From positions 1-64,000 of IMG/VR virus record IMGVR_UViG_3300031950_000001: a stretch of DNA of 64,000 bases, one strand, 5' to 3'. Each line of letters starts with the position of its first letter. Within the stretch, counting starts at the first letter, position 1. Below, in pieces: positions 21,574 through 41,089 of this stretch. Below the pieces are notes generated by a model. The model did not search any database. It was not told the DNA's origin and saw only the letters and a program-made list of their open reading frames with translations. The position numbers were made by a program, and so were the translations under genes. Source of the DNA: a virus.

Positions 21574-24500
21574 ATGACAACGCCCGAACTTATCGACATA
21601 AGCGACGTTAAGACCATACGCCAGAGGATCTTCGACTCTGTGCGTAACGCGTTTTTATCAACTCCGGCTTATACGCAAGGGCCGTGGTCTATTGAAATCT
21701 CGGACGTCGACTATAAAGACTCGGAACCCGAAGAGGAGCTTCTTAGTCCTTTTTCACACAAAAAGGCTATCGTAACAAACGCAACCCTTGCTAGGGACCT
21801 TTACGGAACCATCAAGATCACGACTCCCGACGGCGTTATCAAAAAACGTACCCTTCTTGCCAAGGTTCCCTATCTTACCGACCGGGGCGTCTTTATTATT
21901 AATGGCGTTGAATACGCCATTACAAACCAGCAGCGCTTAAAGCCGGGTGTTTACGTACGGTTCCGTCAAACTGGGGAGCCTGAGGCTTTCATTAACCTTC
22001 CTGGGCATAAGACCCACCGCTACGTCCTTGATCCCAGAACGGGTATTTTCTACATTCAAGCCGGACAAGCCACATTCCGTCTTTATCCCATTCTTAAGGC
22101 GATGGGCGTTACCGACGAGGAAATACGTAACGCCTGGGGTGCTGACCTCTTTGCGCGCAATGCCGTCGAAAAATCAGACGACCTTCGGCGATTTGCAACA
22201 AGAATGTTCGGCTCTCCCGACGTCGATATTAGCCGAGAATTTACCCAAGTCCCGGTCGCAGCCGATGTGATGCGGCGTAATCTCGGTCTGATTCAAAACT
22301 ACCTTGATAAGCGCGCTGCGCTGGCCTCAACCGTCAAGATGATTCAGCTATTGCAAGGCCAAGCCAAAGAAGATGACCGGGACTCGATTGCCAATCAGCA
22401 GTTCCTGGGACCAGAGGATATCTTTGCCGACGGCGTGCCTATGAAAATGCGCCTTATTTTGCGCAATATCCTCTGGAAGGCCATGCGCAATCCCAAAAAA
22501 GAAATCATTCCCCCTCGACCGGCCCAGGCAATTATCGATCATGTTATCCGCGCCTCGGGTCTTATGTCGGCTCCTGCGGAGATCAACCCCGTCGAAATCT
22601 TGGACCACCTTTTCAAAGTAACCCGAATGGGGGAGGGCGGTATCGGTGCTACGGAAGCAATTCCATATTCGGCACGCGACGTCCATGCTACGCAATTCGG
22701 CTTTATCGATCCTGTTACTACGCCCGAATCCCTAAGAGTGGGGGTAGATACGCGGTTTACCGTTACTGCCAAGCGTGGTGCCGACGGTCTCCTCTATATT
22801 CCTGCCGTCGATGTAAAGACCGGAAAGAAGACCTGGCTAAACTCCGAGCAAACCGAAGACGTTACGATTGCCTTCCCAGGAGAACTTGAGACGGGCAGGA
22901 AGTTTGTTCGAGCCATTCATAAAGGCTCCGAAGCCATTGTTCCGCGCGATCAAGTAACGCATTATATTAAGGACGCTACGCACATCTTTGGTCCTTTGGC
23001 GTCCTTAATCCCTATGAAAAGCGCTTGCTTCCCGCAACGGGTTGCCATGGGAAGCCGTTTTATTACGCAAGCGCTTCCTCTTATTAATAGAGAAGTCCCC
23101 CTCGTTCAGTCCGTCGATGCTGAAGGCACACCTTTCGTTGCCAAATTTGGTCCGTATGCCGGTGCTGTTAAAAGCCCGTGCAAAGGAGTTGTGAGAAAGG
23201 TTACGCCCGACTTTATCGAAGTTTATGATTCTGACGCTAAAAAGACACGTAAGATTTGGATTCACAACAACACGCCCTATGCCCGGCAAACCGCCCTTTA
23301 TAACGAGCCTTTAGTAAAACCCGGCGATGTCATAAAACCGGGTCAACTATTGGCTTATAGCAATTTCACGGATCAAAACGGCAACCTTGCCATGGGCGTA
23401 AACGCCAAGATTGCCTATATGGCGACAGGCGATACGTATGAAGACGCCTTTGTCATCTCCGAATCCTTTGCCAAACGACTCACGGCTGAGAACCTATTCG
23501 TCTACGAACATAAACCCAGCGAAGGTTCTGGAAAACCCTTCTATGTCTCCCTTTTCCCCAATAAACTTACTTCCGAGGCCCTAGAACGATACACGGAAGA
23601 AGGGGTTGCCAAGCCTGGTACTGTTTTGTCAAAGGGCGATCCCATCGTTCTTAGCGTCAAAATGCTTCCCATTACAACCGCCAGGGCGTCCCATCGTATG
23701 TTTGTGGATGATAGCATCACATGGGATTATGACTCGCCTGGTATCGTGATTGCAGCAGGTAAGACCAAGGATGGTTATATCGCTATGGTAAAGTCCTTGT
23801 TTGAGACCCAACAAGGGGATAAGATCGCAGGCCAATATGGCAATAAAGGCGTTGTCATCATAAAGCCCGATAGCCAGATGCCGATCGGCGAAGACGGTAA
23901 GCCGGTCGATATCGTCGCGTCGCCGTTTATTATCTCTCGAGCCAATATTGGCCAAATCTACGAAGCACTCTTAGGTAAGGTTGCCAAAAAGCTGGGGCGG
24001 CCTATTTATGTCAAGGACTTCGAGAACGCCGACAAATTGCATCAGTACGTTACGGAGATGCTCAAAAAGCACGGGGTAAAGGATACCGAAGTCCTTACCG
24101 ATCCTGCTACCGGCAGGAAAATCCGGGCGCTTACCGGTTACGGCTACATCCTTCGGCTCTGCCATATTGCCGAAGATAAGCTTCAGGCCGTTGATGAAGC
24201 CATTGCGTCCAGCGTTGAAGATATTCCAACGGTAGGGGAAACAGGTAAAGCAAAACGACTCGGTCTATTAGAGCTTAATGCTCTATTGGCGCATGGCGCA
24301 TATGACACCATTACCGATGCCGCGCTCATCCGAGGACAGGCCAACGATGAAGCATGGCGCCAGTTTATGACTGGCTATAACCTTCCGCAGCCTAAAGTAC
24401 CCCACATTTGGCATAAGTTCGTAGCCCTATTAAGAGGGGCAGGCATTAATCCTATTCAAGAGCGGTCTGGAATTAGGCTTCTGGCGCTACGGGATAAGGA

Positions 24501-25935
24501 TATTGATACCCTGGCTGGTAAGCGCTATATCCAGAACTCCGAAACGGTTCGCGTCTTTAGCGACGGATTCCGGACGGTTCAAGGTGGGCTTTTCGATGAT
24601 GGGCTTACAGGCGGGCTAGCCGGAACGCGATGGGCGGCTATTAAACTACCGGAGCCTGTTCCCAATCCCGTTATGCTGGAACTGTTAGGGCGGCTCATCG
24701 GGGTTAGCGAAAAAGACTTTATTAGCATGTGGGCAGGAGAAATCCCTATCCCAGAGCGCTACCGGACCGGCAAAGAGCCTATCACTGGTCCCCAAGCCGT
24801 CCTTAATCTATTTAAAAACTATAACGTCAGCCGCGAAATTGAACGAACGAAAGAAGAGCTCCAAGTTGCGGCTCCGTCAAAACGCGCTTCGCTTATCAAA
24901 AAGCTCAATTACCTAGAAGGACTCAAGAAGTTTGGTATTCATCCTTCGGAGCTCTTCTGGACCAAGGTCCCGGTTACCCCGCCCATCTTCCGTCCTATTT
25001 CGATGATTAAGGACGGTACCCTTATCGTTAATGATGCCAACTATCTCTATAAAGAGCTCCTGGATTTCATTTCGGCTTATAGCGAGATTGCAGGAGAACT
25101 CAGCCAACTGACCGATGAGCGGAAAACACTTATTAATATATTAAGAGGTCTAGCCGGTCTTGATGATCCCCATAACTACGCTCTCAAACGACAAGGGATT
25201 AAAGGACTGCTGGCTACGGTTGTCGGCCCTAGTCCCAAGGCCGGCATCATGCAGCGTAAGATGCTGGGTATCAGCGCTACGCTAGCCGGTCGGGCGGTTA
25301 TTACGCCGAATAGCTCATTAGACATTGATGAGATCGGGTTGCCCGAAGACGCGGCTTGGGTGGCGTATAAGCCGTTTATCATTCGCGACCTGATGCGTCG
25401 AGGACTACCCGATAGCGTTCTTCGGAATGTTCCGCCGGCTCTTCGGCAATCTCCCTTCCTTGTGGCCAATCTGCTTGTCAAGGAAAAGCATCCATATGCC
25501 CGAGAATCCCTCCAACGGGTTATTGAGCAACGCCCGGTTGTCGTAAACCGTGCGCCTGTGCTGCATAAATACGGGATTATGGCGTTTAAGCCCGTACTTA
25601 CGCAAGGAAAGACCATTGAGATAAGCCCGCTTATTACTCAAGCTTTTGGGGCGGACTTTGACGGGGATACAATGCAATTCCATGTTCCGGCGTCAGACGA
25701 TGCCGTAAAAGAAGCATTTACGAAGCTACTACCGTCAAAGAACCTCTTTAAGGCAGCAACCCTGACGGAGCCGGTTTATACCCCTCAACAGGACTATCTC
25801 ATTGGTCTTTGGTATGCGCGCCGCGTCGATAAAAATAAACCGGTTAAGGTATTTTCGACGAAGCAAGACGCACTCGCTGCATTTGCAAGGGGCGAAGTCG
25901 CTATCGATCAGCCGATCAAGATTCTCGAAAGCTAA
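21574..25935 (+). CDS. Phage multisubunit RNA polymerase: beta subunit fused to the N-terminal half of beta' (catalytic DFDGD)
   Basis: RpoB-like motifs GVFIING, RDVH..QFG.IDP.TTPE, YEDAFVISE, GDKIAG.YGNKG, GLLELNALLAHGA. RpoC-like motifs VPVTPP.FRP, GRAVI, NRAPVLH, GADFDGD. Confidence 0.95.
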   Translation: MTTPELIDISDVKTIRQRIFDSVRNAFLSTPAYTQGPWSIEISDVDYKDSEPEEELLSPFSHKKAIVTNATLARDLYGTIKITTPDGVIKKRTLLAKVPYLTDRGVFIINGVEYAITNQQRLKPGVYVRFRQTGEPEAFINLPGHKTHRYVLDPRTGIFYIQAGQATFRLYPILKAMGVTDEEIRNAWGADLFARNAVEKSDDLRRFATRMFGSPDVDISREFTQVPVAADVMRRNLGLIQNYLDKRAALASTVKMIQLLQGQAKEDDRDSIANQQFLGPEDIFADGVPMKMRLILRNILWKAMRNPKKEIIPPRPAQAIIDHVIRASGLMSAPAEINPVEILDHLFKVTRMGEGGIGATEAIPYSARDVHATQFGFIDPVTTPESLRVGVDTRFTVTAKRGADGLLYIPAVDVKTGKKTWLNSEQTEDVTIAFPGELETGRKFVRAIHKGSEAIVPRDQVTHYIKDATHIFGPLASLIPMKSACFPQRVAMGSRFITQALPLINREVPLVQSVDAEGTPFVAKFGPYAGAVKSPCKGVVRKVTPDFIEVYDSDAKKTRKIWIHNNTPYARQTALYNEPLVKPGDVIKPGQLLAYSNFTDQNGNLAMGVNAKIAYMATGDTYEDAFVISESFAKRLTAENLFVYEHKPSEGSGKPFYVSLFPNKLTSEALERYTEEGVAKPGTVLSKGDPIVLSVKMLPITTARASHRMFVDDSITWDYDSPGIVIAAGKTKDGYIAMVKSLFETQQGDKIAGQYGNKGVVIIKPDSQMPIGEDGKPVDIVASPFIISRANIGQIYEALLGKVAKKLGRPIYVKDFENADKLHQYVTEMLKKHGVKDTEVLTDPATGRKIRALTGYGYILRLCHIAEDKLQAVDEAIASSVEDIPTVGETGKAKRLGLLELNALLAHGAYDTITDAALIRGQANDEAWRQFMTGYNLPQPKVPHIWHKFVALLRGAGINPIQERSGIRLLALRDKDIDTLAGKRYIQNSETVRVFSDGFRTVQGGLFDDGLTGGLAGTRWAAIKLPEPVPNPVMLELLGRLIGVSEKDFISMWAGEIPIPERYRTGKEPITGPQAVLNLFKNYNVSREIERTKEELQVAAPSKRASLIKKLNYLEGLKKFGIHPSELFWTKVPVTPPIFRPISMIKDGTLIVNDANYLYKELLDFISAYSEIAGELSQLTDERKTLINILRGLAGLDDPHNYALKRQGIKGLLATVVGPSPKAGIMQRKMLGISATLAGRAVITPNSSLDIDEIGLPEDAAWVAYKPFIIRDLMRRGLPDSVLRNVPPALRQSPFLVANLLVKEKHPYARESLQRVIEQRPVVVNRAPVLHKYGIMAFKPVLTQGKTIEISPLITQAFGADFDGDTMQFHVPASDDAVKEAFTKLLPSKNLFKAATLTEPVYTPQQDYLIGLWYARRVDKNKPVKVFSTKQDALAAFARGEVAIDQPIKILES

Positions 25936-26075: not shown

Positions 26076-26273
26076 ATGTTGATATACGACTTTAAAAGCG
26101 GGAAGATGGTAAAGTTTGCAATGCCGGACTTGACGATGCGGCAGTTGCGCGCGCTACAGAGGCATGCGACGCGTGCATTAAAACGCATTGCACTTGCGAC
26201 CACAGTCGATATGTTCCTTGCAAGGAGCCGTCGTCGAAAAGGTTCGTCTTCGCTGCGACGGCGTGGTCTGTAA
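26076..26273 (+). CDS. Leader family L1 protein (short, basic)
   Basis: MLIYDFKSGKMVKFA|MPD. Confidence 0.7.
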   Translation: MLIYDFKSGKMVKFAMPDLTMRQLRALQRHATRALKRIALATTVDMFLARSRRRKGSSSLRRRGL

Positions 26274-26290
26274 AACCGCGAAAAAGAACG

Positions 26291-26536
26291 ATGCTAATCT
26301 ATAACTTTCAAAATAACAAGATGGAAAAGGTTGCGATGCCGGACTGGCTGCGTAATACGCTATCGGTGTTTGGGAGAATCGCAGGCCGCGTATTACGCAA
26401 AATTGCCATTGGGGTTGCGATTGCGGTGTTATTAGGAAAAGATCATCATCATACTAGGATTGGCCTGCCTAGTGTCAACAAACTGCCGTCAACCAGCCGA
26501 TTGTTTCGAACGAAAACGATACGTCTTCCTAAATAA
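26291..26536 (+). CDS. Leader family L1 protein
   Basis: MLIYNFQNNKMEKVA|MPDW. Confidence 0.7.
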   Translation: MLIYNFQNNKMEKVAMPDWLRNTLSVFGRIAGRVLRKIAIGVAIAVLLGKDHHHTRIGLPSVNKLPSTSRLFRTKTIRLPK

Positions 26537-26616
26537 TAGTTGCTGAAAACGCATCCTTCTATGCCTGCGACGACACAGAAGGATGTGATAAACCGAGAGC
26601 CGGAGAGATAAAAACG

Positions 26617-27255
26617 ATGCTAATCCATGATTTTCAAAAACAAGGTCAGACGGTGAAGGTTGAGATGCCTGAATGGTTAGAGGATGCGGTATATGCGCTC
26701 GGAGCACTGGCGATCGGCGGCAGCCTTGGAGGTTATCACGGGGCGGCCCTAGGATCCGCAGCGAGCGTAATCGCCAGCCTCCGTCGCACGCTCAGACGCG
26801 AACTGGCTAAGGATAATGAAAAAGATGAAAAAGACGAAAACGCGACCGAATCGAAGGAAGAGAGTCGCGCTACTCGTCCGTCTGGCAAACTCGAGAAGTC
26901 GGCGATGCCTCTTTGGCTGCGGGATGTACTATCGATAGTCGGAGCGACGATACTTGGCAGCCTTGGTGGAGGTGCTGCCGGGGCGGCACTCGATTCAGCG
27001 CTGGGCGCGGAAGCGCCGGATTTGACGGCTTTACTTGGTGGTCTAGGCGCTGGAGTCGGGTATACAACGGGTATCACGAGCAGATTGCGTCGAGAGGTTC
27101 GCAACGCGCTCAGGGAGGCACGAGAGCAAGGTAAAAGAAAAACCGAACGCTCGAATGTAGATCGTTCGACTTCTCGGAAGACGGACGAAGACGAAGATGA
27201 GGAAGCCGAAATATCGCTTAAAGGCTTGGCTGACGAACTGAAAAAATATGATTAG
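26617..27255 (+). CDS. Leader family L1 protein with two tandem Gly-zipper modules
   Basis: MLIHDFQKQGQTVKVE|MPEWL and an internal GKLEKSA|MPLWL. Confidence 0.75.
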   Translation: MLIHDFQKQGQTVKVEMPEWLEDAVYALGALAIGGSLGGYHGAALGSAASVIASLRRTLRRELAKDNEKDEKDENATESKEESRATRPSGKLEKSAMPLWLRDVLSIVGATILGSLGGGAAGAALDSALGAEAPDLTALLGGLGAGVGYTTGITSRLRREVRNALREAREQGKRKTERSNVDRSTSRKTDEDEDEEAEISLKGLADELKKYD

Positions 27256-27331
27256 CCAAGTTCCAAATTCAAGAAAAAAATGGAAGTGATTTCCGCTCGG
27301 CAAGCAAGTTTTTTTCGATGAAAGGGGACCT

Positions 27332-28081
27332 TTGATGGCAGACTATGACGTTAATGACATTGCGCGTACGATTATCGCGATGTATCTATCCGACGTGGTA
27401 AAGTCGGACATGGAGAAGAAGGGTTTTGTTCCGGTTAAGGCTGGGCAAGACCCGATGGCGGCATTGATGGGAGGTGGTATGCCTCCTGGCGGAGCTCCGC
27501 CCGGAATGCCGCCTGGTGCTCCTATGGGTGGGCCTCCTGGAGCGCCTCCAATGGGTATGCCGGGTATGGGAGCACCGCCTGGTATGCCACCTGATATGGG
27601 TGGAATGGGCGCTCCTCCTGGCGGCGGCGATCTGGGCGGGCTCATGAGCCTTTTAGGCGGTATGCCACCGCCTCCTCCGCCTTCTGGTACCGAGGAAAAA
27701 ACGAAAGAAGAAGAAACGCCTCCCGAAGGAGAAAAGGGGTTCGGCGAGACTACAGGAAAAGGGGAAGTTACCCCTACCGTCCTATATGCGGAGCTTGTCA
27801 AAGTCAGGAAGCTGTTACTGGGTCTGTATGACAAGTTTAATATTAGTGTGCCTACCGATGCTCTGTCGGACGAGGAAGTTTATCTGGGGAAACCTAATAT
27901 TAAAGAGGAAGTAAGACAATCTCCGAAAGAGCGTGAGCAGACAACACCCGAGATTAGGCCGTTGCCGGAGGGGCCGACGGGGGAACTTGGGCCTACGGGT
28001 GCTGTTCCGCCCGAAACGATCCCACCAGCGCCTACGGTACCACCTGAGGTCAAGAACGCCCTTTTGCAATATCGTAGATAA
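27332..28081 (+). CDS. Gly/Pro/Met-rich putative head protein
   Basis: EKKG|FVP followed by GGMPPG low-complexity repeats. Confidence 0.7.
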   Translation: MMADYDVNDIARTIIAMYLSDVVKSDMEKKGFVPVKAGQDPMAALMGGGMPPGGAPPGMPPGAPMGGPPGAPPMGMPGMGAPPGMPPDMGGMGAPPGGGDLGGLMSLLGGMPPPPPPSGTEEKTKEEETPPEGEKGFGETTGKGEVTPTVLYAELVKVRKLLLGLYDKFNISVPTDALSDEEVYLGKPNIKEEVRQSPKEREQTTPEIRPLPEGPTGELGPTGAVPPETIPPAPTVPPEVKNALLQYRR

Positions 28082-28134
28082 AAAAAGAGACAAGGAGATT
28101 TTAAATTCTAGGAGAAAAAAAAGGAGTATTCGAC

Positions 28135-28722
28135 ATGATCTATACGTACCCTTATACTAGCAAAGTCGCTGGCCAAGATCCAGGAAGTGCTAGCGATGCT
28201 GGTCCAGAGCCAAAGCCAGTACCCGCCGTGCCAGCGCCAGGCCCCACCGGGCCGGCAGCAGCTACTAGCCAGCCACCTGCCGGTCCAGGGCCGGCGTCAG
28301 TTCAGCAAGGCCCCACCGGGCCGGCAGCTACTGACCGGCCGGCTACCAATACAGTGCCAGCCGCAGGTGCGACAGACTCCGCCAGGCAAGCAGCAGGTCA
28401 GACAGGTGCCGAGCAACCGATATTCGACCCTGTGACACTTAACGAGATTGCCGGGTACGCAACACTTCCTATACTTCTTGCGCTGATATCTGCCTTTTTG
28501 ACAGATAAGCCTGCCATTCCGCTTGCCTTAGCCTTAGCTGGACTGGGCGCTGCGTATTATAGCCCGTGGGTAAAGGAAAATATTAATGTAATGAGATTGG
28601 CTGAGGCGCTATTTGGTGGCAATACGTCAAACGTGGATACGGAAGATGGCGCAAAAAATAATGCACCACCAAACACTACCCCGGCGACAAACGATTCAGG
28701 AACGTCTGCACAAGGCGGCTAG
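28135..28722 (+). CDS. Family L2-related protein (shared C-terminal hydrophobic hairpin)
   Basis: MIYTYPYTSKVA|G; GYATLPILLALISAFLTDKP..LAGLG is shared with 28843 and 30574. Confidence 0.75.
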   Translation: MIYTYPYTSKVAGQDPGSASDAGPEPKPVPAVPAPGPTGPAAATSQPPAGPGPASVQQGPTGPAATDRPATNTVPAAGATDSARQAAGQTGAEQPIFDPVTLNEIAGYATLPILLALISAFLTDKPAIPLALALAGLGAAYYSPWVKENINVMRLAEALFGGNTSNVDTEDGAKNNAPPNTTPATNDSGTSAQGG

Positions 28723-28842
28723 CCTGATACGACATCTTGATTCCAGAATCAAATTGTGTTTCAGGGCGTTAGTTATTCATAGTCGGGCGTTACAAAAAAA
28801 GATTCGGTGCTAATAACCTAAGCAGAACGAAAGGATCAATAA

Positions 28843-29691
28843 ATGGGTCTCGTATTTAACCCGAACAAATTTTCTTCTACAAAACGAGCAGCCGTACGAG
28901 ATTTCGTTGGACCTTTTTGGGAGGACTATAAGTATTATTTTGATAAAAAATACGGATGGCTTAATCCATTTCCGGCAATTCGCAGCTGGCTACAGCCTGA
29001 TATATCCACGATGCTTCGGGATCCTCAACAACGACAGGCCTTCCTAAACGCCGTATCAGAAATCGCACAGGATCCTCAGCAACGACGCGCCCTCCAAGAT
29101 ATGCTATCAAAAATCTTACCGGATGTTCAGCAACAACAGCAACAACAGCAACAACAATTCCTCAAACAACGGGTTGAACCGGAAGTAGGAAAAATACTCG
29201 GCGGTTATTTCACACTTCCCGCGTTGCTTGCTTTACTTTCGGCGATTTTTACTGATAAGCCTATCGTTCCGATTCTGCTAGGCTTGGCAGGACTTGGTAT
29301 AGCGCACTTCTTCCCCGAAGTTCGAGAGTACGTTAATGCCGCTAACTGGCTAGAGGCGTTGAAGGCGAAACAGGAAGGGACTGGAACCGAGCAGAAGCAG
29401 ACTACGCCCAAGGAGAAGCCGATTGCAGAGCCCCCGTCCGAGCAGAAGCAGACTACGCCCAAGGAGAAGCCGATTGCAGAGCCCCCGTCCGAGCAGCAGC
29501 CGCCTGAAGAGCCTCCGCCTGGGCCGAAACCGCTTGTAGAGCCTACGCCCCCGACCGAGCAGAAGCCGCCTGAAGAGCCTCCGCCTGGGCCGAAACCGCT
29601 TGTAGAGCCTACGCCCCCGACCGAGCAGAAGCCGCCTGAAGAGCCTCCACCCGGGCCGAAACCGCTTGTAGAGCCTACGCCCCCGACGTAG
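28843..29691 (+). CDS. Leader family L2 protein with a Pro/Glu-rich repeat tail
   Basis: MGLVFNPNKFSSTKRA|A; tandem repeats EQKQTTPKEKPIAEPPS x2 and PPEEPPPGPKPLVEPTPPT x3. Confidence 0.8.
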   Translation: MGLVFNPNKFSSTKRAAVRDFVGPFWEDYKYYFDKKYGWLNPFPAIRSWLQPDISTMLRDPQQRQAFLNAVSEIAQDPQQRRALQDMLSKILPDVQQQQQQQQQQFLKQRVEPEVGKILGGYFTLPALLALLSAIFTDKPIVPILLGLAGLGIAHFFPEVREYVNAANWLEALKAKQEGTGTEQKQTTPKEKPIAEPPSEQKQTTPKEKPIAEPPSEQQPPEEPPPGPKPLVEPTPPTEQKPPEEPPPGPKPLVEPTPPTEQKPPEEPPPGPKPLVEPTPPT

Positions 29692-29870
29692 CGGCCTGCC
29701 TGACGTGCACCCTGGGCGAATCCGCAAATGATGCCCTAGATCCAGGTCGCGGCCAAATGCAACAATCGAAAAAATGGCGATTTGTCCGTGACCGAAAATG
29801 GTCGCTGCAAATCCTGTTCTTTATGGTTTGAGGAATAAAGCGGCCATGGTTTCAAACCATTAGAGTCATC

Positions 29871-32572: not shown

Positions 32573-32575
32573 GGG

Positions 32576-32910: not shown

Positions 32911-34242
32911 ATGTTAATACTCGACTTTCGTACTGGCAAAATGACTAAAATAGCGCTAGACTTTAGCGACGCAGCTTCCGCACTGATATCGGCCGGATTA
33001 CTCGGTCTCGGCGGGGCCGGCCTTGGCTATCTCATTGACATGCGAGCCGGGACCGGAAAGCGATGGACTAAGATTCTTGGCTTGTTAGGCCTGCTGGGCG
33101 GGCTTGGGCTCGGTGCGTACGGCCGATATTTGTATAAAACGGACCAAACATCTCCCAATCAGGACGGTATGGCGGCTAGTCCTCTAGCGGTATCTGGCAG
33201 CACGTCCGATACAGCGCCCGAAGAACAGGCTCGCCGCTTGCCAGCCGACGGTTCGCCACTATCAATCGCACCTACCTCTGACAAGGTACAATCTGACGCC
33301 CCATCGGCTAAAACGCGGCCGACACGCCCGTCTAGCGGCTCATCCGACGCGCCACGAACTTCTTCAGGATCGTCGCGTAGTCCGTCCAACCAGCAACAGC
33401 CCTCTGTTTCTATAAGCTCGTCTGCCGGTTCAGCTGGCACGAAACTGCCTCCTAGCCCGCCAGCTGTACAGCATCCTCAAGGGCTGCATAGCGAGTCATC
33501 CAATAGAGCACAATCTCCGTCAGCGTCGTCTGGTCAGGCATCCGGCACGCCACAAACTTCTTCAAAATCAGCGCCCGGTTCATCTGGTACGGCACAATCT
33601 TCGTTAGGGTCATCCGGTCGCCCATCTGCTGCGCCGCCAACTTCTCCAGGATCATCGAGTGGTCCGTCCGACCAGAAACAGACTTCCGGTTCTACAGGAT
33701 CGTCTGCCGGGTCATCTGGTACGAAACCGTCCTCTACAGGGATCAGGCTTTCCGATGACCTCGCACAGAGGTTAGTAGAAAGAGTAAAGACGTTCCTTAA
33801 AGATACGCGGGGATCGCCTGACGATACGGATAGATATAAGGATCTTGATCAAGCACCTAACGAGATGTGCGTTCGACTTGTGCACACGGGAGTCCAAGGC
33901 GGTCAGGGCGTCTATCAGCCGGATGCCCGAGCCTATCGGGCAGCCGCAGAATTTGCTCGCGGCGACGAACAAAAACAGAGAGCAATTCGTCTCGCGAAGC
34001 GTTTCAGTGCACGGATCCATCTGCTTTTATTGCTCCAGCCCAAGCTTGCGCCTGATATGGCACAAGACATAACTCAGCGTATTAACGATGCTCTAACGGT
34101 GTTGCTAACGTTAAAGCCCGACGCATCAAACGCAGACGAGATCGATAAGTATTTTGCAGACAGGCTGCGCGGTTTGTTTAGTAATGATATTATTAATAAG
34201 GCGCTAACCGATCCCTTTTCGATTTCGCCTGAACCACGTTAA
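32911..34242 (+). CDS. Leader family L1 protein with Ser-rich linker and C-terminal domain
   Basis: MLILDFRTGKMTKIA|LDF. Confidence 0.85.
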   Translation: MLILDFRTGKMTKIALDFSDAASALISAGLLGLGGAGLGYLIDMRAGTGKRWTKILGLLGLLGGLGLGAYGRYLYKTDQTSPNQDGMAASPLAVSGSTSDTAPEEQARRLPADGSPLSIAPTSDKVQSDAPSAKTRPTRPSSGSSDAPRTSSGSSRSPSNQQQPSVSISSSAGSAGTKLPPSPPAVQHPQGLHSESSNRAQSPSASSGQASGTPQTSSKSAPGSSGTAQSSLGSSGRPSAAPPTSPGSSSGPSDQKQTSGSTGSSAGSSGTKPSSTGIRLSDDLAQRLVERVKTFLKDTRGSPDDTDRYKDLDQAPNEMCVRLVHTGVQGGQGVYQPDARAYRAAAEFARGDEQKQRAIRLAKRFSARIHLLLLLQPKLAPDMAQDITQRINDALTVLLTLKPDASNADEIDKYFADRLRGLFSNDIINKALTDPFSISPEPR

Positions 34243-34457
34243 ACGAAGTCGAAAGCTGTTTTCAAATTTTATCTTCGTCAGTCCCTGATAGCACTGTACG
34301 GTCCAGAACGAAACTTACCGAACGAAGAAGCGGCTGAAAGGGAATTTCAACCAGTGATAGAGTTGTTTAAGCAGACTAACATCGGAGAGATTCAGAGGGC
34401 GCTAGAAAATCCATTTTCCCTTTTAACTGAATCACCCTAGAAAAGGGGGTAATTATC

Positions 34458-35285
34458 ATGCGAATCCTTGACTTTCGCGCTGGCAAAATGACGAAACGGG
34501 GGTTAGACCTTGGTGATGTTGGTGATGTTCTTTCCGTGGTAGGACCGGGAGCATTGTTTGGTATCGGTGGTGCAGGGCTTGGTAGTATCATTGATATGCT
34601 AGCCGGCACTAAACGTCGATGGACCACGATTCTTGGCCTGACAGGATTGGCTGGAGGCGTTGGGCTTGGAAGTACAGGTCTATTTAAGTCCTGGTTCGCA
34701 GCAGAACGAGGGCCTGAGTTCCCCAAGAAACTAAGTGACATCCCAGCTTATGCTAAGATCTTCCGCTATATCGTATTTATGCGAGCAGATCCGAGTGCAT
34801 TCAAAGGCTCTGATCATCCTATATTTCGACGCCTCCCTGAGATGGATGGAGAGCAGCTGTATTGCCATCTTACGCAGCTGGGGATTGCTCCGAACACGCT
34901 TCCGGGGTATAGAGCGAATCCGTATGTCCATAACGTGGCGGCAAACCTAGTTTCTCCTACCGACCCGCGACAGTTTGCAATTCTACATGCGGCGCATTTC
35001 AACCTGGAAGTTGTGCCGTTACAACTGTGCTGGAACGAGCTTGATGCAAACCAGCGCAACCGACTATTTTCGTCTCTCGGTGCGTATAGGGAGAAATTGG
35101 CTTTAAACGCCAACGACCCTACAATCAGCAAGGAAGCCGATAACGAGTTTAATAAACTAGTAAAGCAACTTATAGAGTACGGGAAAAAAGAGCATGCAGA
35201 TGCACTACGAATATTGCACCAGCAGCATCAAATGGACGTCCAAGAATTTGCTCAACAAATTCAGCAAGTTAAGCAACGACCGTAA
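34458..35285 (+). CDS. Leader family L1 protein with variable C-terminal domain
   Basis: MRILDFRAGKMTKRG|LDL. Confidence 0.85.
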   Translation: MRILDFRAGKMTKRGLDLGDVGDVLSVVGPGALFGIGGAGLGSIIDMLAGTKRRWTTILGLTGLAGGVGLGSTGLFKSWFAAERGPEFPKKLSDIPAYAKIFRYIVFMRADPSAFKGSDHPIFRRLPEMDGEQLYCHLTQLGIAPNTLPGYRANPYVHNVAANLVSPTDPRQFAILHAAHFNLEVVPLQLCWNELDANQRNRLFSSLGAYREKLALNANDPTISKEADNEFNKLVKQLIEYGKKEHADALRILHQQHQMDVQEFAQQIQQVKQRP

Positions 35286-35510
35286 TGACATTAAAGAACC
35301 CTGATTCATTATCACGATTTCTTTTATCTTCGTCGGTTCCTGATAGCATTGTACGATCCAGAGCGAAATTCACTGAACGAAACAGCGGCCGAGAAGGAAT
35401 TTCAACCAGTGATAGAGTTGTTTAAGCAGGCTAACATAAGAGAGATTCAGAAGGCGCTAGAAAATCCGCTTTCCCTTTTAACTGAATCACCCTAGAAAAG
35501 GGTAATTATC

Positions 35511-36293
35511 ATGCGAATCCTTGACTTTCGTACCGGCAAAATGACGAAACTGGCGTTAGACTTTGGTTATATTCCTGCTATGGCTATACCGGGAGTATTG
35601 TATGGTATCGGTGGTGCAGGGCTAGGTAGTCTCATTGATAGGCTAGCCGGCACTAAACGTCGATGGACCACGATTCTTGGTCTGCTAGGATTGGCCGGAG
35701 GTGCTGGGGCTGGAGGGTTGCTCCGATATCTGGATGAGCGCTCCAATACTCCTGAAGCGCAGATGCGTCGGTTCCTAACGAATGCAACGGCGCCGCCGTC
35801 TGATCAGTTTGTGCAACAGATGAGCGAGACCTTCCCATATATAGTTGAGACTTTCCGAAAGGCCGCTACCGAAAAGAAACCGAGCGATCTGATTCGTGGT
35901 CTTATCTGGCCATTATACGAGGAAGGCGGAATTTGGCTTTATAACCCGAGTGCCAGCGAGTTCCAACTTATCCTCTATTTCGCTTCTAAAACGCGAAACC
36001 ATGAGATGATACTACCTGCAATTGATCTTGCAACGGATATAGCTGCGCAAGGTCGGTTGCTTTCGCGGTATCAGGAATGGATTCCGGAGAATTTACGGCC
36101 AGAGATAGAGAACCACTTTAGGAACTATGTGAATGCGACTATCGACTATGTCGAAGGTAAGACGCCGGATCCGAACGCGCCTAAATTATATCTTGACAAG
36201 TTGGTGAAACTACTCAAGGATACAAATAAAAAAGAGCTTATAGAAATTGCGGATCTGATCAGACAACCACGTAAGGTTCTACAACAACAGTAA
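35511..36293 (+). CDS. Leader family L1 protein with variable C-terminal domain
   Basis: MRILDFRTGKMTKLA|LDF; shares GRLLSRYQ..IPE.LRPEIE.HF with 37155. Confidence 0.85.
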   Translation: MRILDFRTGKMTKLALDFGYIPAMAIPGVLYGIGGAGLGSLIDRLAGTKRRWTTILGLLGLAGGAGAGGLLRYLDERSNTPEAQMRRFLTNATAPPSDQFVQQMSETFPYIVETFRKAATEKKPSDLIRGLIWPLYEEGGIWLYNPSASEFQLILYFASKTRNHEMILPAIDLATDIAAQGRLLSRYQEWIPENLRPEIENHFRNYVNATIDYVEGKTPDPNAPKLYLDKLVKLLKDTNKKELIEIADLIRQPRKVLQQQ

Positions 36294-36472
36294 ACAAGAA
36301 CGGGAATACTGATAACGATCAAAATTTTGATTCCGGAATCAAATTTCGATGATGGTTCCGGAATACGCCAATGGTGCGGGCTGATATAGCCCGTTTTTCG
36401 TGGTCTTGGCCGTGAGAGTATTAGGTCAACCTGATTAAGTTATTCATCTCGGCGCCAAATGCGCACAAATTC

Positions 36473-36689
36473 ATGTTAATACTCGATTTTCGTACCGGCC
36501 GATATAACAGAATTCAGCCCGAAGGCTACGATCCAGATCCCGTAGACTACCAAGCTGCTAGCCAAGCTGCTATAATAAAATCTGTACCGTCCAAACCGAC
36601 GAAGTGATAGAGTTGTTTAAGCAGGCTAACGTCGGAGAGATTCAAAGGGCTATAGAAATCCGTTTTCCCTTTTAACTGAATCACCCTAG
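36473..36689 (+). pseudogene. Collapsed L1 family pseudogene
   Basis: Begins MLILDFRTG, then fragments GYDPDPVDYQAA and VIELFKQAN. Upstream ~200 bp duplicates 37930-38132. Confidence 0.7.
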
Positions 36690-36693
36690 AAAG

Positions 36694-37144
36694 GAGGTTA
36701 AAGCTGTTTTCAAATAACTAACTATACCGCTACAAACATACCAATAACACTTGACAAGAGACAAAGATGCGATATACTAATTGGTAAGGATTACCTGCTG
36801 GTCGACAGTGAAATAATCGAGGTTGACCGTCGTTCGGTATAGACACGGGCGTCAAGGCGTTAGCCGTTCTCTCAGATGGAAAGCGGTACGAGAACCAAGT
36901 ACTGCTACGCTCAAGACTGAGAAGTTGTCGACGCTACATCGACGGATATTTGAACGCCGCTCGGAACATTGAGCGGGAAGCGTTACGTTTGATCAACAGA
37001 GGCCGGAGTGGGTTCACGGACTCTCTAAACGGACGTGGACAGGACGTAAGACCCTTCGGGGCAGTCCTGGATGAAACGTCAAAATTGGCTGAAGAAAGGC
37101 AGCCTTCCATTCCTGCCGTGGTTTAGGCAGGTTTGGTAAACCAG
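36694..37144 (+). mobile_element. Non-autonomous TnpB-derived miniature element, copy 2
   Basis: Matches 1616-2066. Inserted within a G-run of a site whose empty paralog is ccctagaaaag|ggtaattatcATG at ~35490-35513. Confidence 0.85.
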
Positions 37145-37154
37145 GGTAACTATC

Positions 37155-37922
37155 ATGTTAATCCTTGACTTTCGCACCGGCAAAATGACGAAACTGGCGT
37201 TAGACTTTGGTGATGTTGCGTCCGTGGCGATACCGGGGGCGTTGTTGGGTCTCGGTGGTGTGGGGCTCGGTAGTCTAATTGATATGCTAGCCGGCACTAA
37301 ACGTCGATGGACCACGATTCTTGGTCTGACAGGACTGGCCGGAGGTGCGGGGCTTGGAGGATTGGGTCGATATCTGTATAAGCGCGATCCTACATATCAG
37401 ACGTTTGTGTTCCTAGATAAGGCATTCACGCCGGCGACTGAGTCGGATGTGCAGAAGAAGTTCGGTAACAACCCAGACGCGATTGCGGCGCACCAAACCC
37501 GAATCAATAACATGACGCCGACCGAACTGATTAATAGTCTTATCGAACCAATGTACAAGGACTTTTGGGGGTATGACCCGGATGTTCTCGATTTCCAAGT
37601 TGCCCGCTATCTCGTTTCTAAACAGGCCGATAACGCGAAATTAACCGCACTTAATATCGCCGTGGATATAGCGGTACGAGGTCGGTTGCTTTCGCGGTAT
37701 CAGAAACGGATTCCGGAGGATTTACGGCCAGAAATAGAGAAACACTTTATGAACTATGCGCGCGAAATGACCAATCAGTTCGCAAGTGCGAATCCAAATT
37801 GGGAAGTGCCTAAATCGCATCTTCAGACGTTGGTAGGGTTACTCGTGGCGACGAATCAAGAAGAGGTCGAAAAACTTGCGAAGCTAGTCGCAAATCCATA
37901 TAGCGTTCGGGATCAATCATAA
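37155..37922 (+). CDS. Leader family L1 protein with variable C-terminal domain
   Basis: MLILDFRTGKMTKLA|LDF. Confidence 0.85.
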   Translation: MLILDFRTGKMTKLALDFGDVASVAIPGALLGLGGVGLGSLIDMLAGTKRRWTTILGLTGLAGGAGLGGLGRYLYKRDPTYQTFVFLDKAFTPATESDVQKKFGNNPDAIAAHQTRINNMTPTELINSLIEPMYKDFWGYDPDVLDFQVARYLVSKQADNAKLTALNIAVDIAVRGRLLSRYQKRIPEDLRPEIEKHFMNYAREMTNQFASANPNWEVPKSHLQTLVGLLVATNQEEVEKLAKLVANPYSVRDQS

Positions 37923-38105
37923 AAAAACGAACGGGAATATTGATCGGTATCAAAAAATTTTGATTCCGGAATCAAATTTCGATGATGGTTCCGGAATACG
38001 CCAATGGTGCAGACCGATATAGCCCGTTTTTCGTGGTCTTGGCCGTGAGAGTATTAGGTCAACCTGATTAAGTTATTCATCTCGGCGCCAAATGCGCACA
38101 AATTC

Positions 38106-38918
38106 ATGTTAATACTCGATTTTCGTACCGGCCGAATGACCAAGTTTGCTTTGGAATGGCGCGGGCCGCTTGTTGATTGGCAAGGACTGGCTCGTGACTG
38201 GGGGTTGATCGGGCTACTGACCCTTGGCGGACTCGGCGTCGGCAGTCTTGTTGATTGGCTTCGCGATCGAAAGCTCTTTAGTGACGTCTCAAAACGAATT
38301 TTGTTGCTAAGCTTAGCGGTGGGATCGGTCGCTACGCTCGGCCGTTTTATGAATCAAAATATTTGGCTATATTTGCGGAAACGGAAACCGCTGGAAGGCC
38401 AAGGAAAAGAAATCGCGGACAAACATATCGAATTTGCCGCAAAATTACTAGAATTGCATAAAAGCGCGGCGAACGGATCAGCACAGATCAAGGACCCAGG
38501 ATTGCCAGTTGATATGACATTGAGTGAGATCGTCCGCGCAGGCAAGACGGGTGATCATCGATTCCTCGACGCGATTCAGAAGGTTTTGCAAAGTACGCGT
38601 TATAACCTGGATCAGGATTATAAAAACGCCGTCGATGATCTACTAAACTCCGTCGCGTTCTGGCATCTAATGCAAGCCATGCTTTCGAAAGTGCCGCCAA
38701 ACCACCCGATACGACAGACAATCAACCAGAAAATGGATCGCTGTATGCTTGATCCGCGCGTCGCGCGACAAGCGGAAGTTGAATCGATGAAGGCCGATCT
38801 TAGCGCCTTACAAATTCCCAATGCGCACGCTACAGTAGAGACGTTATTCTCGAATCCAGATGCGTTTATACAATCATGGCCGCAAATGTCGGCTAAACTC
38901 TTTGAACAGACAAAATAG
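38106..38918 (+). CDS. Leader family L1 protein with variable C-terminal domain
   Basis: MLILDFRTGRMTKFA|LEW. Confidence 0.85.
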   Translation: MLILDFRTGRMTKFALEWRGPLVDWQGLARDWGLIGLLTLGGLGVGSLVDWLRDRKLFSDVSKRILLLSLAVGSVATLGRFMNQNIWLYLRKRKPLEGQGKEIADKHIEFAAKLLELHKSAANGSAQIKDPGLPVDMTLSEIVRAGKTGDHRFLDAIQKVLQSTRYNLDQDYKNAVDDLLNSVAFWHLMQAMLSKVPPNHPIRQTINQKMDRCMLDPRVARQAEVESMKADLSALQIPNAHATVETLFSNPDAFIQSWPQMSAKLFEQTK

Positions 38919-39000: not shown

Positions 39001-39285
39001 ATGCGAATTGTACTCGACAATAAAGAATTTGAATGTAAGAAGTTCGTCGTATTCGACAAGTTTGGCAACGCGGTCGCTGCCGGATATGATCATGCTGATG
39101 TCCTCGTGTTTGATACATGTGCCGGCCCCGATTTTCCGAAAATTCTCTCCATTGTTGGCTATCCAGATCGTCTTCCAACACAGATCATTGATACAAAACC
39201 ATTAATACCGGAGCTTTCTCCTATCAAGCCTGACACAGGTGCCGACCATGCAGGAAACGACCATTGGACAACTCTTAATTTCTAG
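39001..39285 (+). CDS. Hypothetical protein
   Basis: 94-aa ORF overlapping the start of the RNAP beta'C gene. Confidence 0.6.
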   Translation: MRIVLDNKEFECKKFVVFDKFGNAVAAGYDHADVLVFDTCAGPDFPKILSIVGYPDRLPTQIIDTKPLIPELSPIKPDTGADHAGNDHWTTLNF

Positions 39286-41089
39286 TACCCTGCCGTCGGA
39301 TATTAAGCTTCCTGACGAAATCACAAAGAAGACGATCAATAGTTTCTATGGGGAGCTTGCTCGCAAATACCCCGATCGCTACGGCGAAATTACGAAAAAG
39401 TTAAATCAAATTGCCGTTCAGGCCCTTTATTCCAATGACGGCGCCTCGTTTAGCCTAGATGATCTTCGACCTCTTCCTTCTTCTTACTCTTATAGACCGG
39501 TTATTCTAAAAGAGATCGAGCAGATCGCGTCCAGCAAATTGCCGGATCGCGAAAAGCGCAAAAAAATCGCCGACGCCATTCTTCGTCATTCGCAAAATCT
39601 CCTTCAACTCACGCAAGACGAGGCCAAAGCCGCGAATAATCGATTCTACGAATATGTCTATTCCGGCGCTCGCGGTAATCCCGCCCAGCTTAAGCGGCTT
39701 ATTACGGGGGATACGGCCTACTTTGACCCCTCTGGAGAGGTAGTACCCTTCCCCGTTTTATCTGCGTATTCGGCAGGAGTACCTCCCGCAGAGTTTTGGG
39801 CTGCCTGCTATGGCGCCAGGAAGGGGCTAGCGGATACAAAGCTGGATGTAGCCAGAAGCGGTTATCTTGCCAAGCTTCTCAACCGTGCTACCCATCGGCT
39901 TGTTGTTATCGGCCACGACGCCAAAACAAAAACTCCTTATCCCATTGGTCTTCCTGTAGAGACTCAAGACCCTGATAATATCGGCGCATTTCTCGCACTT
40001 CCGGCAGGAAGATGGCCTGCCGGTACGGAGATAACACCGGCCGTTTATGAAGATCTAAAACGAGACGGTATCAAAAAGATCGTCGTTCGGAGTCCCATTG
40101 CCAGCCCTGCTGTTGATGGAATCTATGCCGTCGATGCCGGAATCCGCGAACATGGTCGTCTCCCCGAAATCGGTAGCATTCCTGGCATGGCGGCGGCCCA
40201 AGCAATCGGCGAACGACTAGCACAGACGTCCTTGAGCTCGAAGCATCTGGGAGGCGTTGTGAAGTTTAGCGGCTTTAGAGTGCTAGAACAGATGCTTAAT
40301 GTTCCGAAATTCTACGTTGGCGGCGCCATTCATAGCCAGGTCGACGGAAAAGTTCGATCTATAGACAAAAATGAAATTGGTCAATGGCGAATTGTAATCG
40401 GAGAACAAGAACATCTAGCACCTCCGTCCCATAAACCCATCGTCAAAGAGGGCGACGTTGTCGAAGCCGGAGACATACTAACGGAGGGTTTGCCCAACCC
40501 GGCAGAGGTAGTAAAGCACAAAGGGGTTGGCGAAGGACGTAGGGCATTTGTTAAAATGTTTTATGAGGCGATGCGTGACGCTGGTCAGCCGGTCCATCGT
40601 CGTAATGTCGAGCTTTTAGCCCGAGGTCTTATCGATCACGTTATTATAACCCAGCCGTTTGGGGGGTTCTATCTCGATGAAATCGTACCCTATGGCGAGG
40701 TTGCTAAGCGATGGACCCCCCGAAAGGGTAGTGTTCGAGTTCCTGTCGACAGCGCGTTAGGCTACTATCTTGAAGTACCCGTTCTTCACTACACGATAGG
40801 GACAAAGATAAAGCCTTCGGTTATCAAAGAGCTTAAAGAGGCGGGAATCAAAGATATTATCGTTCATAGCGATCCGCCTCCGTTTGAGTCATATATGGTT
40901 CGTGCAGCATCTTCGCTTGAGTTTGATCCCAACTGGATGACACGGTTGTTCGGCTCGAACCAAATTCGGGCCTTATTAAGCGCCGTCCGTCAAGGCGCTA
41001 CAGGTGAAATCTACGGTACTAGCTTTGTTCCTGCAAAAGCAATCGGGATTCCGTTGGGGCAGTGGATACGTGGAGTTGTAAATCGCTAA
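39248..41089 (+). CDS. Phage RNA polymerase beta' C-terminal half
   Basis: SGARGN, GARKGLADT..VARSGYL (bridge helix), AAQAIGERLAQ..L..KH.GG (trigger loop) and RRNVELL motifs. Confidence 0.93.
   Translation: MQETTIGQLLISSTLPSDIKLPDEITKKTINSFYGELARKYPDRYGEITKKLNQIAVQALYSNDGASFSLDDLRPLPSSYSYRPVILKEIEQIASSKLPDREKRKKIADAILRHSQNLLQLTQDEAKAANNRFYEYVYSGARGNPAQLKRLITGDTAYFDPSGEVVPFPVLSAYSAGVPPAEFWAACYGARKGLADTKLDVARSGYLAKLLNRATHRLVVIGHDAKTKTPYPIGLPVETQDPDNIGAFLALPAGRWPAGTEITPAVYEDLKRDGIKKIVVRSPIASPAVDGIYAVDAGIREHGRLPEIGSIPGMAAAQAIGERLAQTSLSSKHLGGVVKFSGFRVLEQMLNVPKFYVGGAIHSQVDGKVRSIDKNEIGQWRIVIGEQEHLAPPSHKPIVKEGDVVEAGDILTEGLPNPAEVVKHKGVGEGRRAFVKMFYEAMRDAGQPVHRRNVELLARGLIDHVIITQPFGGFYLDEIVPYGEVAKRWTPRKGSVRVPVDSALGYYLEVPVLHYTIGTKIKPSVIKELKEAGIKDIIVHSDPPPFESYMVRAASSLEFDPNWMTRLFGSNQIRALLSAVRQGATGEIYGTSFVPAKAIGIPLGQWIRGVVNR

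Follow-up and report, generated by a model that had tools for sequence, protein, structure and literature searches.

An RNA polymerase core made of two chains was found in the viral genome IMGVR_UViG_3300031950_000001 of IMG/VR. The stretch analysed, called the window below, is the first 64 kb (64,000 nucleotides) of this genome, which is complete at 144,055 bp and has direct terminal repeats. The first gene encodes chain 1, in which a compact and complete beta subunit (residues 1-~963) is followed by beta' residues ~5-550, up to just after the catalytic double-psi beta-barrel. Chain 1 thus contains beta together with the clamp, lid, rudder and Mg-binding barrel, and chain 2, encoded by a second gene, contains the bridge helix, trigger loop, jaw and cleft. 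It is practically certain that the products of the two open reading frames (ORFs) make up the entire catalytic core of a multisubunit RNA polymerase of the bacterial type, and that they belong to the phage family described here. Among phage multisubunit RNA polymerases, this family is a genuine and conserved variant that is largely undescribed; it has cultured representatives, and the member in the window is divergent. Judging from the sequences, the family is phage-specific, and beta and beta' appear to be always fused, barring one exceptional locus among the best 80. The branch with the window phage, Salmonella phage Arash and Vibrio phage D69 has cut beta', while the other branches have a single chain of ~2050 amino acids (aa).

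Phage multisubunit RNA polymerases have so far been discussed almost only through the phiKZ/AR9 type, with many fragments, no sigma factor and two polymerase sets. The present family has a different design: the two large subunits are fused, neither zinc site is indispensable, and a sigma-70-type factor seems to be kept. The total size of ~2010-2150 aa lies below that of the smallest bacterial cores sampled (~2270 aa). Questions are thereby raised about the need for the beta' zinc sites and for the alpha scaffold, about how a core of one or two chains functions, and about how sigma docks without a zinc ribbon.

Chain 1 joins beta to the N-terminal half of beta'

In chain 1, Pfam placed Rpb2_3 and Rpb2_6 at residues 336-888 (E 4e-41 for Rpb2_6) and Rpb1_1 and Rpb1_2 at residues 1085-1382. 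A phmmer search against PDB sequences matched beta at residues ~60-960 and E. coli beta' ~166-550 at residues 1062-1450. A profile of the family (22 members) aligned with nearly the whole of beta (profile 23-~1000; cyanobacterial beta 33-1053 of 1100) and with beta' from ~151. Since the junction alone (residues 939-1100) gave no real match among PDB sequences in phmmer, it was located by multiple alignment and by folding. Concatenated beta and beta' sequences from 29 phages and 31 bacteria were aligned with MAFFT. The last conserved beta element of chain 1 is HIWHKFVALLRGAGINPI, whose bacterial counterpart is ESFNVLMKEIRSLGLNIE, and the bacterial beta C-terminus PESFNVLMKEIRSLGLNIE aligns with residues 943-961. 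The N-terminus of beta' starts a few residues past HIWHKFVALLRGAGINPI: the bacterial N-terminal block aligns with KRYIQNSETVRVFSDGFRTVQGGLFDDGLTGG, and the next bacterial beta' block, RMGHIDLASPVAHIWF, with RWAAIKLPEPVPNPVM of chain 1.

An AlphaFold model of residues 900-1453, built on a 27-sequence alignment, had a pLDDT (predicted local distance difference test) of 84.5. Model residues 65-507, which begin at residue ~964 of chain 1, superpose on E. coli beta' 17-501 (VIA Z 22, 408 aligned residues, root-mean-square deviation 10.3). The same part also superposes on Synechococcus gamma 8-513 and on Thermus beta' 5-780 (VIA Z 22, 405-418 aligned residues), and its best structural match is cyanobacterial gamma. 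Because the superposition on the N-terminal residues of beta' begins at residue ~964, the two parts adjoin directly, and no linker lies between them. Within the family, the residues at the junction are conserved. The sequence-only reading, that a 1453-aa chain runs from a compact RpoB straight into RpoC up to GADFDGD, was borne out by the Pfam order, the MAFFT alignment and the fold, which all agree.

The catalytic elements of chain 1 are recognizable. The beta active-site motif GDKIAGQYGNKGV keeps both catalytic lysines of bacterial GDKxAGRHGNKGV, and R and H are changed to Q and Y. In beta', the clamp helices, the lid and the rudder are present in the alignment. The Mg-binding motif is GADFDGD in 88 of 121 homologues, NADFDGD in 25 and AADFDGD in 2; the three aspartates are kept, and N is replaced by G in chain 1. 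The equivalent of rifampicin cluster I, NPVEILDHLFKVTRMGEGGIG, is strongly remodelled in comparison with bacteria, and the enzyme may be insensitive to rifampicin.

Chain 2 and the split of beta'

Chain 2 has the Pfam domains Rpb1_4 and Rpb1_5 and matches beta' from ~575 on (578-1081) in the phmmer search against PDB sequences. Its model (pLDDT 78.7) resembles beta' chains in Foldseek (E 2e-29, ~640 columns). The bridge helix and trigger loop had been read from the sequence as lying in a second gene 13 kb away, and both were located in this ORF. The bridge helix, FWAACYGARKGLADTKLDVARSGYLAKLLNRATH, corresponds to a long helix of the model. The trigger loop, AAQAIGERLAQTSLSSKHLGGV, keeps the catalytic histidine; its region is modelled as helices at 315-333 and 346-353 with a tip of low confidence. 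As the start codon, ATG at 39248 is favoured over GTG at 39239: AGGTG lies 7 nt upstream, and relatives begin with M-x-x-TT-x-GQ. The true length of chain 2 is probably 613 aa.

Chain 1 ends past the strand equivalent to bacterial KVKVR, and chain 2 opens at the TTxGQ motif. Beta' is split in a variable surface loop; in bacteria this loop has lineage-specific insertions, and the single-chain phage forms have a very short version of it. In the NCBIfam rpoC model, the break lies between positions 534 and 547. Aligned with chain 2, the cyanobacterial gamma/beta' junction falls at residue ~18, which puts the phage split ~18 residues upstream of the cyanobacterial one. By alignment, the two splits appear to be near neighbours at distinct sites.

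Zinc sites and cysteine content

It had been noticed from the sequence that the zinc-ribbon cysteines of beta' are absent and that the second zinc-site region has no cysteine. The alignment agrees on both points. A clean gap of 32 columns lies exactly over the bacterial four-cysteine ribbon of beta' in all phage rows inspected (8 of 29), which suggests that the ribbon is always deleted in the phage family. In zinc site II, all four cysteines of the window protein are replaced: HDAKT stands for bacterial DCGT and VRSPIASPAVDGIYAVDAG for RSxLTCESxxGVCxxCYG, and the segment PIASPAVDGIYAVDAG of chain 2 is the counterpart of LTCESxxGVCxxCYG. The cysteines of site II are kept in Arash, D69 and the single-chain loci L042, L053 and L081, and lost in the closer relatives L011 and L024. 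The loss of site II thus seems to be confined to the sub-clade of the window phage, from which nearly all other cysteines have disappeared as well.

Chain 1 has 3 cysteines and chain 2 has 1, a total of 4 in 2069 aa, against 1.35% cysteine in the remaining proteome (binomial p 2e-8). Cysteine is missing altogether from 97 of 121 fused homologues, and Arash gp206 has 1 in 1525 residues.

The fused gene defines a widespread phage family

Among 5.8 billion clustered proteins searched, more than 120 clusters of 1420-1490 aa cover 99-100% of chain 1 at 40-83% identity. All of them carry PF00562 and PF00623, and their contigs are up to 226 kb long. In IMG/VR, at least 420 contigs encode a relative of chain 1, and the fused gene is a clean marker for this widespread lineage of 130-230-kb phages. 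Beta and the N-terminal part of beta' (beta'N) are in one ORF in 79 of the best 80 related IMG/VR loci. In the sole exception, L077 (IMGVR_UViG_3300025602_000002), the beta and beta' parts are in different frames, because of a frameshift or because the two are truly separate. Of 82 phage loci, 35 have a single ORF of ~2020-2160 aa holding beta and all of beta' (in one example, six Pfam domains lie in order in one ORF), 46 are of the two-chain type, and 1 has the separate frames. Both genes are within the locus in 27 of the two-chain cases; in the other 19, the gene for the C-terminal part of beta' (beta'C) lies beyond the fetched flank.

A megablast search of the fused gene against 50,697 phage records gave no match, and the relatives in that collection were found at the protein level only. 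Salmonella phage Arash (OQ632216) has gp206 (1525 aa) and gp216 (606 aa), whose order and strand agree with those of the window genes. Vibrio phage D69 has the same gene pair; across the two phages, the fused chain is 1525-1527 aa and the second chain 606-609 aa long. The fused gene, the only one examined in Vibrio phages D181 and D148, encodes a near-full-length match to the fused chain in both. The window pair has the make-up typical of the family, in which an ORF of ~1450-1530 aa for beta and beta'N is followed downstream on the same strand by a beta'C ORF of ~600-650 aa. When ORFs of the window phage were compared with the Arash and D69 loci by tblastn, the capsid (E 2e-22) and portal (E 5e-67) genes and a further two structural genes matched. 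The layout of fused beta-beta'N plus beta'C in phages and the zinc loss were not found described in the searchable literature, which leaves paywalled papers uncovered.

Some members have additional sequences. In D181 and D148 (H2 and H3), the match to the fused gene falls into two parts, separated by an annotated homing endonuclease gene; this may reflect an intron or a mobile insertion. Many relatives have fused genes of 1640-2000 aa or longer (the over-long loci L030, L032, L034 and L039, among others), the clusters P0008, P0015 and P0117 contain intein or LAGLIDADG domains (PF14890, PF14528), and some of the single-chain forms are as long as 2570-3011 aa. Some long beta'C homologues, P0170 (1774 aa) among them, continue into C-terminal NUDIX and SNF2-helicase domains. 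These fusions, and the Arash helicase gene gp217 directly after the beta'C gene, suggest a polymerase-coupled helicase.

Phylogeny

The concatenated alignment of the 29 phage and 31 bacterial sequences was used for a tree (IQ-TREE, LG+G4, 1971 columns, short search). The bacteria represent at least 11 phyla, including Chloroflexota, candidate phyla radiation (CPR) groups and Cyanobacteria. A branch of 1.29 separates all 29 phage sequences from all 31 bacterial ones, with a support of 100 in the Shimodaira-Hasegawa-like approximate likelihood-ratio test (SH-aLRT). The two-chain forms are on one side of a branch (support 85), and Arash plus D69 are sister to the remainder. The window protein has a long end branch of 0.96 within a two-chain subclade of 11 rows (SH-aLRT 97). 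In a tree of beta' only (LG+C20+F+G4 with posterior mean site frequencies, 1031 columns), to which four other cultured-phage polymerases were added, the fused family, the other phages and the bacteria form one group each, all three with a support of 99 or more. The fused chain has 23-33% identity to bacterial beta and beta'. Because of this low identity and the separation in the trees, nesting of the genes in a host rpoBC clade, which had been named as a finding that would overturn the sequence-only reading, can be set aside; the family forms a clade outside the 31 bacteria and the four other phage polymerases.

Comparison with known polymerases

The nearest described relatives are in the cultured phages. 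Arash, D69, D181 and D148 have the same deleted zinc ribbon in the rows inspected and fall into the same clade as the window family in both trees. The identity of Arash and D69 to the window proteins is only 29-30%, they keep the four cysteines of zinc site II, and their two polymerase genes are separated by 4.8 kb (Arash) and 0.65 kb (D69), as against 13.3 kb in the window. In the Arash paper and records and in the D69 records, the chains are called beta and beta' or hypothetical, and the fusion, the split and the zinc loss are unmentioned (PMC10585845). The uncultured phages with a single chain (for example L042, L053 and L081; ~2020-2160 aa) have the same junction and the same ribbon deletion at 30-33% identity. 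Unlike the window enzyme, they have an unsplit beta' and keep zinc site II, and they lie across a branch of 73-91 support.

The fused RpoBC of Helicobacter and Wolbachia is similar in that a single polypeptide runs from the C-terminus of beta into the N-terminus of beta'. Among the NCBIfam models, NF007172 and NF011417 gave chain 1 its best scores, at 310 bits against a cut-off of 5372 bits. In contrast to chain 1, which stops at beta' ~550, these cellular fusions comprise the whole of beta' (~2840-2890 aa), keep the zinc sites and use alpha2 and omega. The separate phage clade, in trees without Helicobacter or Wolbachia, suggests that the cellular and phage fusions are independent in origin. 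A further cellular fusion, outside the Helicobacter and Wolbachia groups, was seen in a Candidatus Paceibacterota (CPR) metagenome-assembled genome (L100), where rpoB and rpoC are in one ORF.

The cyanobacterial and plastid enzymes (gamma/RpoC1 plus beta'/RpoC2) have beta' cut at nearly the same surface loop as the window enzyme. However, cyanobacterial gamma is not fused to beta, the split is after TTxGR, the zinc sites are kept, and there is a large insertion in beta'. Four cyanobacterial rows are on the bacterial side of the tree, and the phage family is unrelated to the cyanobacterial clade.

In the phiKZ/AR9 polymerases, beta and beta' are each in two or three chains, are never fused, and occur as two paralogous sets (PMC7598289, PMC7824862, PMC13282480). 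These phages encode no sigma-70 homologue (PMC7598289, PMC7824862), and one polymerase set is packaged in the virions and starts early transcription (PMC7598289, PMC13282480). Polymerases of both types lack alpha and omega and do not stably bind host subunits, according to a review (PMC13282480). The window phage likewise has phage beta and beta' without alpha and omega, but it has one set, an intact and fused beta, and a gene of the sigma-70 family. The phiKZ/AR9 polymerases were too distant to turn up in the sequence searches.

In the entries seen of Weinheimer and Aylward 2020 (PMC7481178), the mReC phages have a deep-branching bacterial-type beta of 1000-1487 aa and beta' of 887-1391 aa, in separate genes in every case, and a T4-type capsid (PF07068). 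These phages, as far as those entries show, and Rhizobium phage TM30, Vibrio phage 1.031.O, Ralstonia phage RP13 and E. coli phage IME392 are tailed phages of 110-210 kb with a deep-branching bacterial-type beta and beta', the latter in a gene of its own; in the beta' tree, the polymerases of the last four cluster apart from the others (99 SH-aLRT). Identity of the fused family with the mReC clade was considered, and it is argued against, on the entries seen, by the capsid (phrog_2522 vs PF07068) and by fused vs separate genes. The layout had been described from the sequence as distinct. It does differ from the phiKZ, Helicobacter and cyanobacterial forms, but it is not peculiar to one phage, as the at least 420 IMG/VR contigs demonstrate.

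Sigma, alpha, omega and promoters

No gene for alpha or sigma was found in the 64-kb window, as the sequence-only reading had stated. For alpha (PF01000, PF01193) and omega (PF01192), a six-frame hidden Markov model (HMM) search of the whole 144-kb genome gave no match at E <= 1, and the controls matched in 14 of 14 genomes. The enzyme is nevertheless not to be taken as sigma-less, because an ORF of the sigma-70 family lies outside the window (Table 1). It matches Sigma70_r3 (37 bits) and Sigma70_r4 (34 bits), both above the Pfam cut-offs, as well as phrog_351, and it has 0 cysteines in 273 aa. Sigma factors are annotated in the genomes of Arash and D69, and all five relatives' genomes examined contain matches resembling sigma region 4, which exceed the cut-off in two of them. 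The clamp helices, which are the docking site of sigma region 2 in bacterial RNA polymerase, are alignable in chain 1. It is somewhat more likely than not that the sigma-like factor is the partner of this polymerase. As for independence from host alpha and omega, the chances are about even.

The left genome end has a cluster of promoter-like sites, GGCATTTA. The window contains 14 of them against 2.65 expected; none of 100 shuffles reached 14, and none of the sites lies at 20-64 kb. Genome-wide, 24 are on the + strand, 10 of them beyond the cluster, and 2 are on the - strand. Their context is approximately CTAAAG-N17-CATTTA, with the extended consensus gCTAAAGatt-N~15-GGCATTTAa.aTATGG. Many copies precede non-coding stretches. 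The sites are candidate targets of a holoenzyme of the phage polymerase and sigma.

Virion packaging

Packaging in the virion had been proposed on the grounds that the polymerase genes sit among putative head cargo genes. Packaging is plausible, but the cargo role of the neighbours is unproven, and the best support, which is also the only experimental evidence, comes from the proteomics of Arash (PMC10585845). In mass spectrometry of Arash virions, Gp206 gave the most spectra of all proteins (3516), and Gp216 (1210), the sigma factor Gp10 (467) and the adjacent helicase Gp217 (1148) were also detected (PMC10585845). A homologue of Arash gp218, whose product was likewise detected in virions (PMC10585845), is conserved and lies directly after the beta'C gene in relatives. 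Since the capsid gene (phrog_2522, a homologue of Arash gp226) lies downstream, the polymerase genes are inside a structural module; this module is conserved and holds homologues of virion-detected Arash proteins along with the capsid gene. The window capsid protein had no match to a Pfam family. When 20 neighbouring ORFs were scanned with Pfam and PHROG, there were hardly any matches, so that these neighbours can be used neither for nor against a cargo role.

Weighing of the explanations

The explanation favoured here is, as a whole, regarded as probable. In place of the alpha dimer, the fusion would keep beta and beta' assembled, a task that must also be accomplished without alpha in the phiKZ and AR9 enzymes. 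The phage sigma-like factor would dock on the kept clamp helices and the flap, and the holoenzyme would initiate at the bipartite, phage-specific promoters (CTAAAG-N17-CATTTA type) clustered at the left genome end. Synthesis of core and sigma may be late, alongside that of the structural proteins; both would then be packaged in the capsid and enter the cell with the DNA, and early transcription would therefore be independent of the host polymerase. Delivery of the polymerase by the virion is judged to be slightly better than an even bet. The most complete picture, in which a zinc-free, nearly cysteine-free core, independent of alpha and omega owing to the covalent link of beta and beta', is packed and injected with its own sigma-70-type factor, is put forward tentatively.

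Several points weigh against this explanation. The window phage is known here from its genes alone, and I infer the function, the partners and the packaging of its enzyme. The sigma-like ORF matches several NCBIfam sigma models over residues ~52-260, far below the full-length cut-offs, and in a BLAST comparison of the loci no similarity to the Arash sigma gp196 or the D69 sigma was detected. The flap tip, to which sigma region 4 binds, is found in relatives; the window protein has a shortened version of it. The host holoenzyme could read the GGCATTTA promoters. The Arash virion preparation contained 116 proteins, including ribonucleotide reductases and RNA ligases, and given such an inclusive proteome, carry-over of abundant intracellular proteins is possible, as its authors allow (PMC10585845). 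Cysteine content separates the detected from the undetected Arash proteins weakly (0.50% vs 0.87%), and cysteine depletion was therefore used as supporting evidence only. In the trees, the branch between one-chain and two-chain forms has a support of only 73-91, and both trees are without an archaeal outgroup and hence unrooted; that the fusion came first and the beta' split later is suggested by parsimony and outgroup states.

It may be that the polymerase is not packaged and is made after infection, with the host RNA polymerase reading the GGCATTTA early promoters and the phage core and sigma taking the middle and late genes. The non-virion enzymes of phiKZ and AR9 likewise take over middle and late genes, and the GGCATTTA sites look bipartite and sigma-70-like, as would suit a host holoenzyme. 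Only one polymerase set, with a single beta' barrel, was found in the genome, and the set beside the virion enzyme in phiKZ-like phages is a non-virion one. With 116 proteins in the Arash proteome, the polymerase could also be a contaminant (PMC10585845). I nonetheless consider this explanation somewhat unlikely: Gp206 has the top spectral count in Arash virions, where Gp216 and sigma are also high (PMC10585845), the polymerase genes lie inside the structural module without the early-promoter motif, and an extreme depletion of cysteine is common to the polymerase and the structural proteins. Another alternative, also contrary to the favoured explanation, is a hybrid enzyme in which the phage chains combine with host alpha2 and omega, perhaps also with host sigma, so that only the catalytic subunits are swapped. 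Phage beta and beta' are indeed of the bacterial type over nearly their full length, and this extends to the C-terminal regions through which the bacterial subunits contact alpha and omega; the whole-genome HMM search found neither alpha nor omega. Such a hybrid is improbable, however, as the covalent beta-beta' junction removes the main assembly role of alpha, enzymes of the phiKZ/AR9 type do not stably bind host subunits (PMC13282480), and the phage carries its own sigma-like factor. In addition, the identity to bacteria is 23-33% and the hosts of the family span Salmonella, Vibrio and environmental bacteria; conserved host contacts are therefore unlikely.

That the fusion results from a sequencing or assembly error, cellular contamination or a recent capture of host rpoBC has a negligible probability. 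Bacterial rpoB and rpoC are adjacent and co-oriented, such that a single frame error could join them, and some records of the phage collection are plainly bacterial rpoBC contamination (H5, H6, H8 and H9). However, 79 of the best 80 loci, more than 120 protein clusters and the genomes of four cultured phages share this junction, whose residues are conserved; this disposes of the sequencing error that had been named as a possible refutation. The contig is moreover a complete 144-kb genome with direct terminal repeats, and the bacteria, with a best identity of ~26-33%, are beyond the branch of 1.29.

If the polymerase is packaged with sigma, it would be the first sigma-70-dependent virion polymerase, and the single-chain relatives, if they function as proposed, would be a natural bacterial RNA polymerase core in one polypeptide. 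Biochemistry and cryo-electron microscopy are feasible, as Arash grows on Salmonella Typhimurium ATCC 14028 and D69, D181 and D148 are deposited isolate genomes. A compact polymerase of one or two chains, probably insensitive to rifampicin, would also interest synthetic biology.

Gene layout

The features are listed in Table 1. The 13.3-kb gap between the genes for chains 1 and 2 is filled with ORFan genes that are not part of the polymerase. At least 10 of them are paralogues with a 15-aa leader, MLIxDFRTGKMTKxA, followed by a Gly-zipper hydrophobic stretch, and all of these are cysteine-free. No member of this leader family was found in the corresponding interval of 12 two-gene relatives inspected. 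The spacing of the two genes in relatives is 0.65-14 kb, most commonly ~1 kb, and the 13-kb separation is a local insertion.

Table 1. Positions of the polymerase genes, their motifs and other features (window coordinates unless marked as genome)
Feature	Position	Strand	Basis or remark
Promoter-like sites GGCATTTA, 14 copies, cluster at left genome end	5104..17556	all +	
Fused beta-beta'N gene (chain 1, P0001), 1453 aa	21574..25935	+	Pfam, PDB phmmer, profile, MAFFT, fold
Rifampicin cluster I equivalent NPVEILDHLFKVTRMGEGGIG	22585..22647	+	alignment
Beta active-site motif GDKIAGQYGNKGV, residues 748-760	23815..23853	+	alignment with 7 bacterial rows
Last conserved beta element HIWHKFVALLRGAGINPI, P0001 944-961	24403..24456	+	MAFFT, VIA-align range; bacterial counterpart ESFNVLMKEIRSLGLNIE
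Scar of deleted beta' zinc ribbon, LTGG/LAGT	24604..24627	+	MAFFT block
Beta' clamp helices (coiled-coil)	25030..25086	+	alignment
Catalytic Mg-binding motif GADFDGD, residues 1359-1365	25648..25668	+	
ORFan block between the polymerase genes, 13 kb	26076..38918	+	
Beta'C gene (chain 2, P0002), 616 aa from GTG 39239	39239..41089	+	Pfam, PDB phmmer, fold
Bridge helix FWAACYGARKGLADTKLDVARSGYLAKLLNRATH, residues 186-219	39794..39895	+	alignment; long model helix 183-217
Beta' zinc site II region, all four Cys replaced	39914..40141	+	alignment
Trigger loop AAQAIGERLAQTSLSSKHLGGV, residues 319-340	40193..40258	+	alignment
Arash gp218 homologue, ~730-800 aa	47052..49232	+	tblastn
Major capsid protein, phrog_2522, Arash gp226 homologue	57578..58540	+	
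Sigma-70-family ORF, 273 aa, outside the window	genome 135073-135894		

In relatives, the interval between the polymerase genes contains just two ORFs, one of ~240 aa rich in P, A and G and then one of ~80 aa. The former is homologous to orf48 of the window (27332-28081), which encodes a ~240-aa protein rich in Pro, Ala, Gly and Met and lies between the polymerase genes across the family (at ~10340-11100 in L011-L022). The ~80-aa ORF was considered as a hidden omega-like subunit; the idea was dropped because this ORF has no homologue in the genome of the window phage. A search for a T7-type polymerase (PF00940) was uninformative, since the control genomes were likewise without a match. The block at 20.0-41.1 kb has 0.19% cysteine, as compared with 1.3% genome-wide, and a contiguous block of cysteine-depleted genes, including those for the polymerase, the leader family and the capsid protein, extends over ~20500-63000 of the window.

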